Below, piece by piece: positions 46,593 to 46,749 of a stretch of DNA of 64,000 nucleotides. Positions within the stretch are counted from its first letter, which is position 1. Each line of letters begins with the position of its first letter. The position numbers and the translations under genes were made by a program. A model generated the notes under the pieces. It saw only the letters and a list, made by a program, of their open reading frames with translations. It made no database searches and was not told where the DNA came from. Source of the stretch: an uncultured Clostridia bacterium (lineage in GTDB: Bacteria > Bacillota > Clostridia > TANB77 > CAG-508); contig CALXVE010000001.1 of the NCBI GenBank assembly GCA_944391885.1, positions 173 to 64,172 of the forward strand, given 5' to 3'.

Positions 46593-46749
46593 TTTTACTA
46601 TTTAATGGCTTAAAAGTGTATGTGTCCTGCAACGGGAGTTCTGTATAAATAATCTCACTCCGTCCCGACGGAGCTCCCTGCTCCGTTCGATTATTTATTA
46701 CAGAAGCTCCCTGCGCGGACTTAAAGTGAATAATGCCATTAAATAGTAA
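46593..46749. mobile_element. MITE-like element with perfect 17-bp terminal inverted repeats and a GC-rich structured core
   Basis: Terminal repeats TTTTACTATTTAATGGC ... GCCATTAAATAGTAAAA. Internal nested hairpins (TTCTGTATAAATAATC / GATTATTTATTACAGAA and CTCCGTC-CCGAC-GGAG). The core motif GAGCTCCCTGCGCGGACT is shared with the 39333 element. Confidence 0.6.

Follow-up and report, generated by a model that had tools for sequence, protein, structure and literature searches.

Between a dockerin gene and a cohesin gene in a 64,000-nt stretch of DNA from an uncultured Clostridia bacterium (contig CALXVE010000001.1; the whole stretch is referred to as the window) lies a palindromic repeat of 161 bp that we call element A. 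It is most likely (at a probability of roughly 0.8) a MITE (miniature inverted-repeat transposable element) of ~160 bp, i.e., the relic of a non-autonomous DNA transposon and an old insertion in a tightly coupled gene pair. A first-pass annotation, made from the letters of the window, had already described it as MITE-like, and this holds in view of terminal inverted repeats (TIRs) shared between copies, duplications of 8 or 9 bp, dispersed copies, a small size without coding capacity, and the existence of both filled and empty sites.

Element A belongs to a dispersed repeat family

Scanning a single genome of each prokaryotic species with the pattern GTCCT-N62-92-GCTCC-N0-2-CTGCGCGGACT gave 88 loci, most of which are chance matches in GC-rich genomes. 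Among the 29 matches in low-GC DNA, two are the window's own elements (element A and a second repeat, element B) and one (L122) is a chance match; apart from the latter, these matches stem from metagenome-assembled genomes (MAGs) of uncultured Clostridia or of Clostridium and form two clear families, A and B. Profile searches of the scan loci added 13 further family A copies from 6 MAGs (one of these copies decayed) and 16 further family B copies, nearly all of them in the MAG BRZ_DN__bin3, which at the ABC/ZIP locus shares ~97.5% identity with the window. The window itself holds one A copy and one B copy only. The first-pass annotation had named a lack of other copies as the finding that would speak against its interpretation, and at least 13 further A-type copies dispose of this objection.

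Family A units measure 144 to 164 bp in the profile search, and alignment of the copies shows that termini, spacers, and core are all homologous; the family profile (nhmmer) matches the window copy at 46593-46751 with E = 6e-43. Copies of the abundant A1 subfamily have GTTACTAGATAATGG as their termini, and those of the subfamily to which the window copy belongs have GTTGCTATTTAATGG or TTTACTATTTAATGG. The arms of element A (left arm ATTTTACTATTTAATGGC) are homologous to the 15-bp TIR (GTTACTAGATAATGG / GTTGCTATTTAATGG) of 10 other copies, with more divergent arms in L069 and L074. Every family copy is intergenic, and between co-directional genes the copies lie in sense or antisense orientation 5 times each for family A and 6 and 5 times, respectively, for family B. 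A conserved reading frame is absent from all copies, and the short ATG-initiated frames differ between subfamilies. One A copy (L058) and one B copy (L099) from different species lie upstream of an orthologous block of three genes that both species have, at a synteny break.

The ends of the elements were fixed by alignment before their flanks were compared for target-site duplications. Perfect 8-bp direct repeats flank the A1-type copies L056, L090, L127, L081, and L055 (each such match having a chance probability of ~1.5e-5), and a perfect 9-bp direct repeat flanks copy L128. Such duplications around young copies in another genome are the footprint of a DDE-type transposase that makes staggered cuts. 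Directly upstream of the duplicated 8 bp, four A1 insertions (left flanks of L056, L090, L127, and L111) have GTTA or GTAA, so that the target looks like the GTTAC terminus of the element itself, possibly owing to a preference for such targets. Termini beginning with GTAA or GTTA together with 8-bp duplications are reminiscent of the IS66 family, an affiliation that we do not claim.

Searches of other collections returned no relatives. The TIR and B-core strings have 0 matches in viral contigs, a loose core motif gave 43 matches there that are all due to chance (in contigs of 43-74% G+C), the JGI metagenomes scanned with AAGCTCCCTGCGCGGACTT gave 5 matches that are all GC-rich chance matches, and blastn gave no match for A or B in plasmids or for A in phages. 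A search of the literature on Clostridia or Firmicutes MITEs with such features yielded nothing pertinent and no description of the family.

The whole unit folds into one hairpin with conserved pairing

The perfect 17-bp terminal repeats reported at first pass (46593-46609 / 46735-46751) are real, and the full arms are one nucleotide longer, being 100% complementary over 18 nt at a distance of 125 nt. By chance, perfect 18-bp inverted-repeat pairs no more than 300 nt apart are expected ~0.003 times per window, and elements A and B (39329-39573) contain the only perfect inverted repeats of at least 17 bp in it. The range of 46593-46749 originally assigned to the element thus located it correctly and ended 2-3 nt short of its true end. 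The two spacers that separate arms and core (14 and 13 nt) together form a short direct repeat, TTAAA(A)GTG. The GC-rich core with nested hairpins was also well described (52% G+C in the core, 29% in the whole window), and the fold is a single nested hairpin of -68.1 kcal/mol on the + strand (shuffle mean -30.7, z = -9.9, 0/200 shuffles as good) and of -66.6 kcal/mol on the - strand (z = -8.8). Its internal motifs needed some correction. The motif said to occur twice does so as the 10-mer AGCTCCCTGC and not as the 11-mer GAGCTCCCTGC, the second copy of which reads AAGCTCCCTGC, and the motif said to be common to element B is exact for CTGCGCGGACT, which GCTCC precedes at a distance of 0 or 2 nt (GC) instead of a single "n".

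Across 13 distinct copies of element A, the 54 predicted pairs are standard in 95.8% of their cells. Changes on both sides affect 12 pairs, compared to 5.3 +/- 1.6 in shuffles (0/500 as high) and 1-5 in slid controls; 7 of the pairs changed in this way lie in the paired columns of the terminal repeats (5-19/151-165), and the outer helix of family A shows one-sided changes only rarely. Within the core, CGGAG at 46669-46673 is able to pair with upstream CTCCG (46659-46663) or downstream GCTCCG (46680-46685), which results in overlapping alternative hairpins in 46640-46700, one favoured per strand and each followed by a T-rich run; the upstream CTCCG pairing is not kept in the A1 subfamily. Rfam gave zero matches at the gathering score across the window, none at E <= 10 in 46400-46900, and noise only at E <= 10 over element B, and ARAGORN found no tRNA or tmRNA in the window.

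Empty, core-deleted, decayed, and intact sites in relatives

Orthologous spacers between the dockerin and cohesin genes were reached through graded homologues of the window's cohesin protein. Contigs with exactly this protein carry an element A that is 100% identical, and the element is intact in L139 (cohesin identity 89%) and L004-L007; its orientation does not differ among the six contigs in which it is present. In L155 (88%), only the two arms are present around a 14-nt loop (TTAAAAATAATAAT; L155:2929-2979), and both L152 (84%) and L143 (68%) have a decayed short remnant beside a different palindromic insertion. There is no element in L141/L142 (76%), where TAA is followed by six bases and then by the window's TTAGGAGGTAAAAGTTTTG (the empty spacer of ~22 bp reads TAA + ttagta + ttaggaggtaaaagttTTG), and none in the 38-bp spacer of L145/L146 (63%). 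Depending on the lineage, the site is therefore empty, core-deleted, decayed, or intact, which is the opposite of the locus without insertion polymorphism that the first-pass annotation had named as its second counter-indication.

These spacers indicate that the gene pair originally was an operon with its genes ~20-40 nt apart, that element A is an insertion, and that this insertion is old, as it has decayed differently in different lineages. An ancestor would have acquired element A through trans-mobilisation by an insertion sequence (IS) into the ~20-40 nt spacer of the two-gene operon. This copy would since have been inherited vertically and is probably immobile, with a target duplication that is no longer recognisable. 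As for L155, its core was apparently lost between the TTAAA(A)GTG repeats of the two spacers, and this contig is better read as a microhomology deletion; we rejected the view that it represents the empty form of a pre-existing hairpin into which the core was inserted, given that other family members without such a direct repeat have spacers homologous to both of these.

The other palindromic insertion in this spacer, the third in this set (L143:3783-3925 and L152:2766-2905, beside the decayed A remnant), has arms of approximately GCATTRGAAACTKTCTTTT.GA.ATTTTTAA and an unrelated core. Its arms have GAGATTTTT in common with the outer arms of element B.

Element B has the ends of its core in common with element A

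Element B, the second family, is larger than the element at 39333 that had been noted at first pass and has a fold of -99.7 kcal/mol (z = -12.5). The two elements have CTGCGCGGACT exactly in common at 39491-39501 and 46711-46721 (chance expectation 0.01; 0/100 shuffles with two matches), and GCTCC precedes it with a gap of 0 nt in element A and of 2 nt (GC) in element B. While the arms of families A and B are unrelated, the core closing stem and GCTCC..CTGCGCGGACT are common to both. The proposed kinship of the two elements is real in this sense, and limited to the ends of the core.

Inversion, deletion, and probable correction between palindrome arms

The outer arms of family B are matched within each copy and 30-40% different between copies of the same genome. 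In L058, L086, and L074, the inverted repeat extends beyond the element by 6-15 nt or more on its flanks, and these copies have no remaining direct duplication. The arms of these copies (L058:3567-3748, L086:2183-2352 and beyond, and L074:2831-3020) measure 22-30 nt, and their flanks are mutual reverse complements, possibly caused by palindrome extension through template switching or by insertion into older palindromes. At the ABC/ZIP locus, the interior of element B (39354-39553, ~200 bp between outer arms of 20-25 bp) is inverted in L093:4969-5180 of BRZ_DN__bin3 despite flanks (ABC-transporter and ZIP genes) that are colinear with the window at ~97.5% identity. At the same locus, L002:11880-11977 (sample ERZ28615093) has an element B without its left half and most of its core. 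Another B copy, L106:5051-5199, has outer and inner arms and no core, and the contigs of two samples break inside element B.

The paired changes, the match of arms within each copy, the invasion of flanks, the inversion of element B, and the core-less derivatives all suggest that intramolecular recombination or template switching is frequent between the arms of a palindrome. Arm-to-arm correction of this kind (template switching or recombination within the palindrome), rather than use by a transposase, would have kept the arms of element A perfectly complementary. The evidence from the arms points neither to continued transposase use nor necessarily to selection on an RNA fold.

Alternative explanations

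Several observations weigh against a MITE origin of element A. For the window copy, a clean target duplication is missing (its flanks AAAAACAT and ATAGATAT match at 5/8 positions), and the flanks of L058, L086, and L074 are inverted instead of direct repeats. An autonomous element with the same TIRs was not found in ~330 kb of related loci, viral contigs, JGI metagenomes, plasmids, and phages; the ~330 kb of related loci contain no solitary TIRs flanking a transposase, and the only multi-copy open reading frames (ORFs) in them are orthologous genes. The core is better conserved than its surroundings both between subfamilies (84% identity for the core vs 57% for the arms, counting only core columns unfixed by the search pattern) and within the young A1 subfamily (98% for the core vs 91% for the TIR), and it remains GC-rich in a genome of 29% G+C. 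A conserved GC-rich interior is the opposite of simple neutral MITE decay; G and C are lost in the clearly decayed copy L090:2286-2433. All of these copies were found by searching with the core motif, which introduces a bias toward conserved cores. A last point comes from the comparison with L001, to which the window shows 0 mismatches over 226 nt (46567-46792, a stretch that includes the first codons as well as the element and the ribosome-binding site). The 757 nt before this stretch contain 52 mismatches, and differences are again dense directly after 46792 (~6.9% mismatch on both sides). Under uniform divergence, a mismatch-free stretch of this length has a probability of ~1e-7.

Such a patch between strains with divergent flanks would be expected if element A were above all a cis-regulatory RNA structure of the operon that is under selection (as an attenuator, terminator, stabiliser, or RNase III site) and whose likeness to a repeat is secondary. 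This explanation, which we consider unlikely, would also account for the very stable hairpin on the transcribed strand, the compensatory changes in its stems, two U-G pairs that are conserved on the + strand only, and the terminator-like score of the central hairpin plus T-rich tract. It fits poorly with copies at unrelated loci that have target-site duplications and both orientations relative to genes, and with relatives that keep the gene pair at an empty, core-deleted, or decayed site. A terminator in particular is not apparent: on the + strand, no U-tract follows the full hairpin, the A+T-rich outer stem of which is followed by AGATATTTAGG, and the terminator pattern scan gave a weak internal match only (46667-46687 + CGATTATTTA). 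This terminator-like centre is not kept in the young A1 subfamily, where the T-run lies 8 nt from the stem. Finally, the mismatch-free patch can result from recombination with break-points at the palindrome as an alternative to selection, because the comparison of the window with L001 is a mosaic elsewhere as well, with blocks of 100% identity (most of the sequence) alternating with others of 80-95% identity.

The conservation of the core lends itself to two further proposals. According to the first, a ~100-nt core GTCC(T)TGC ... GCTCC(..)CTGCGCGGACT is under purifying selection as a putative structured RNA or protein-binding DNA hairpin that is carried around low-GC Clostridia genomes by two different palindromic transposon scaffolds, these being reshaped by arm-to-arm template switching through which inverted repeats grow into the flanks and the interior is flipped or deleted; we regard this as improbable. 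According to the second, which seems quite unlikely, the ~100-nt core (GTCC...GCTCC(..)CTGCGCGGACT) is itself the mobile or selected unit, a functional DNA or RNA module that different palindromic scaffolds (A, B, and their subfamilies) captured or that inserted itself into them. A mobile core would explain why the same core ends are found in two families with unrelated arms, why the core is far better kept than the arms even in columns that the search did not require, why family B blocks GTCCTTGCTGTCGCCTTCC and GGAAGGCTCTAGAACTACGCTAACGCTCCGCCTGCGCGGACTGCAC are nearly invariant next to the variable outer arms described above, and why arms without a core exist, and its G+C content of 0.52 in a genome of 0.29 would be less surprising. 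However, the duplications of the young subfamily flank the whole 160-bp unit and not the core, and the spacers beside the core are homologous across subfamilies, so that divergence is graded without any sharp module boundary. Core-less forms retain unpaired half-arms or microhomology as deletions would, the search bias noted above favours conserved cores, and the core comes with neither an Rfam family nor a promoter or protein partner. Under the first of the two proposals, these repeats would be a dispersed functional element and not junk MITEs.

It is very improbable that element A is a REP/REPIN-type element mobilised by RAYT or a palindrome-associated element derived from IS200/IS605. Like REP/REPIN sequences, it is an intergenic palindromic repeat forming a large hairpin that persists vertically and is prone to deletion (PMC3733652, PMC3116915), and it has a GC-richer hairpin with nested, doublet-like symmetry and a CGTC tetranucleotide in the core. 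Yet REP/REPIN units with RAYT measure 20-40 bp, carry a GTAG or CGTC tag, and have no target duplication (PMC3733652, PMC3116915), and the GTAG/CGTC REPs in PMC3733652 include no Firmicutes families. Element A is ~160 bp in size, belongs to a family with 8/9-bp target-site duplications of which HUH Y1 transposition leaves none, and has no RAYT or tyrosine-transposase domain among the 20 window ORFs scanned; both of these origins were ruled out on target duplications and termini. An invertible DNA switch (inverton) with the arms as recombination sites, as might be suggested by the inverted interior of the sister element B between its outer arms in a related genome, is exceedingly improbable for element A with its one orientation in six contigs, no promoter-like site, and no recombinase gene nearby. 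An integron attC site was rejected in light of termini (GTTAC...GTAAC) that are the reverse of R''/R' core sites (RYYYAAC ... GTTRRRY), the target-site duplications, and flanking genes of housekeeping or surface type.

Possible role in the operon

The first-pass annotation had suggested that element A might uncouple its two neighbours as an intra-operon terminator, attenuator, or RNA stability element. Empty-site relatives keep the two genes only ~22-38 nt apart, and the dockerin and cohesin genes are for this reason very probably co-transcribed, with element A being transcribed as a hairpin of -68 kcal/mol. It would thus form a long hairpin within the dockerin-cohesin mRNA, starting 10 nt after the stop codon of the upstream ORF (44278-46581). 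The AGGAGG ribosome-binding site of the downstream gene (46761-46766) lies 9 nt past the stem, is not sequestered by the hairpin, and is kept in the empty-site relative L141, so that translation of the cohesin would still be possible with its ribosome-binding site outside the stem.

Our best guess, based on sequence and predicted fold, is that double-stranded RNA is processed at element A or that the element is a barrier to exonucleases, either of which would modestly uncouple the two cistrons, or else that it has no effect. The most likely effect in the proposed course of events would be that of a processing or stability site (an RNase III-type substrate or exonuclease barrier) by which the cistrons are partly uncoupled. 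Efficient termination is less likely, and element A has no G+C-rich stem directly before a U-tract as would characterise an intrinsic terminator. A pattern scan predicted no sigma-70-like promoter inside element A, and some lineages without the core or the whole element still keep the dockerin-cohesin gene pair.

Features of the window

The flanking genes are as they had been described at first pass, i.e., a dockerin/glucosaminidase-like gene upstream and a cohesin gene downstream, according to domain and structure matches (Table 1); the N-terminal part of the upstream protein resembles the Atl glucosaminidase 6FXO (E = 8e-10).

Table 1. Elements A and B, their parts, and the genes on either side of element A (positions in the window).
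Feature	Position	Strand	Basis
Upstream gene, secreted glucosaminidase-like protein with SH3_3, Big_2, and Dockerin_1 domains	44278..46581	+	domain scan, structure match
Whole element A, palindromic non-coding MITE-like repeat, 161 bp	46592..46752	.	inverted repeat, fold, family profile
Left TIR ATTTTACTATTTAATGGC, 18 nt	46592..46609	+	inverted-repeat search, alignment
Left spacer TTAAAAGTGTATGT, internal loop in window copy, homologous to spacers of other copies	46610..46623	+	fold, alignment
GC-rich core, 98 nt, 52% G+C, best conserved part of the family	46624..46721	+	alignment, composition
Core closing stem, 5' half GTCCTGCA, pairs with 46712-46720 (TGCG-C-GGAC), invariant in 13 copies	46624..46631	+	fold, pairing analysis
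Long inner stem, 5' half GGGAGTTCTGTATAAATAATC, pairs with 46689-46711	46634..46654	+	fold, pairing analysis
Central hairpin CGGAGC-TCCCT-GCTCCG; weak terminator-like match together with TTCGATTATTTA after it	46669..46685	+	fold, pattern scan
Direct 10-mer AGCTCCCTGC, first copy	46672..46681	+	repeat search
Direct 10-mer AGCTCCCTGC, second copy	46705..46714	+	repeat search
GCTCC-CTGCGCGGACT, motif common to element A and element B (39484-39501)	46706..46721	+	exact match
Right spacer TAAAGTGAATAAT	46722..46734	+	sequence, comparison with L155
Right TIR GCCATTAAATAGTAAAAT, 18 nt	46735..46752	+	inverted-repeat search, alignment
AGGAGG ribosome-binding site of downstream gene, outside hairpin	46761..46766	+	sequence, fold
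Downstream gene, TTG start, Cohesin and Cadherin-like domains	46775..48043	+	domain scan
Element B, second family	39329..39573	.	inverted-repeat search, fold, profile
Element B, outer 20-bp perfect inverted repeat	39329-39348 / 39554-39573		
Element B, inner 17-bp perfect inverted repeat	39375-39391 / 39509-39525		
Element B, core	39398-39501		

Two further features of the window were seen at some distance from these elements. A Peptidase_U32 (collagenase-like) gene is split into two adjoining - strand ORFs, 19372-19962 and 17510-19312 (window 17510-19962), which may represent a pseudogene, a frameshift, or a site of recoding. A 22-bp hairpin with 95% complementarity and a 2-nt loop (17468-17513), placed between the convergent genes 15529-17166 (+) and 17510-19312 (-), is probably a bidirectional terminator.

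Significance and comparison with known systems

Element A explains the odd 193-nt spacer in an otherwise tightly coupled cohesin-dockerin gene pair, and repeats of this kind explain contig breaks in metagenome assemblies of this organism. The searches of RNA families, phages, plasmids, and the literature in this analysis did not turn up the two related repeat families, which can serve as strain markers in a group of uncultured Clostridia. The allelic series at one site (empty, arms only, decayed, and intact) amounts to a natural experiment on a transcribed MITE hairpin in a Gram-positive operon. The conserved GC-rich core and the inverted repeats that invade flanks are small anomalies in this picture.

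With respect to the changes between its arms, element A and its relatives can be compared to quasipalindromes, for which template switching is an established mutational mechanism. Quasipalindrome correction would explain arms that are perfect within a copy and different between copies, repeats that run into the flanks, and the inversion or deletion of the interior. Intrinsic terminators and intercistronic hairpins are similar in forming a stable stem-loop just past a stop codon between co-directional genes. However, the stem of element A consists of 18 A+T-rich base pairs followed by an internal loop of 14 x 13 nt without a U-tract, and the family A unit is found at unrelated sites in both orientations.

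The nearest analogues of element A are the palindromic MITEs known as Correia or NEMIS in Neisseria, RUP in Streptococcus pneumoniae, and bcr1 in the Bacillus cereus group. Like these, it is a non-coding, intergenic unit of 100-200 bp with terminal inverted repeats that forms one hairpin as a whole, and it belongs to a family with short target-site duplications, many copies per genome, presence/absence polymorphism, and frequent co-transcription with neighbouring genes. While RUP and Correia duplicate TA and bcr1 duplicates 5 bp, the duplication is 8-9 bp here. Two other differences are that the interior and not the termini are best conserved and that the core ends recur in a second family with other arms, and neither Rfam nor the phage and plasmid collections that were searched contain a sequence similar to element A. 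Taken together, element A fails the tests for a terminator, REP/REPIN, attC site, inverton, or Rfam family, and it passes those for a palindromic bacterial MITE, the one missing feature being an autonomous partner, which was not found in the loci and collections searched.

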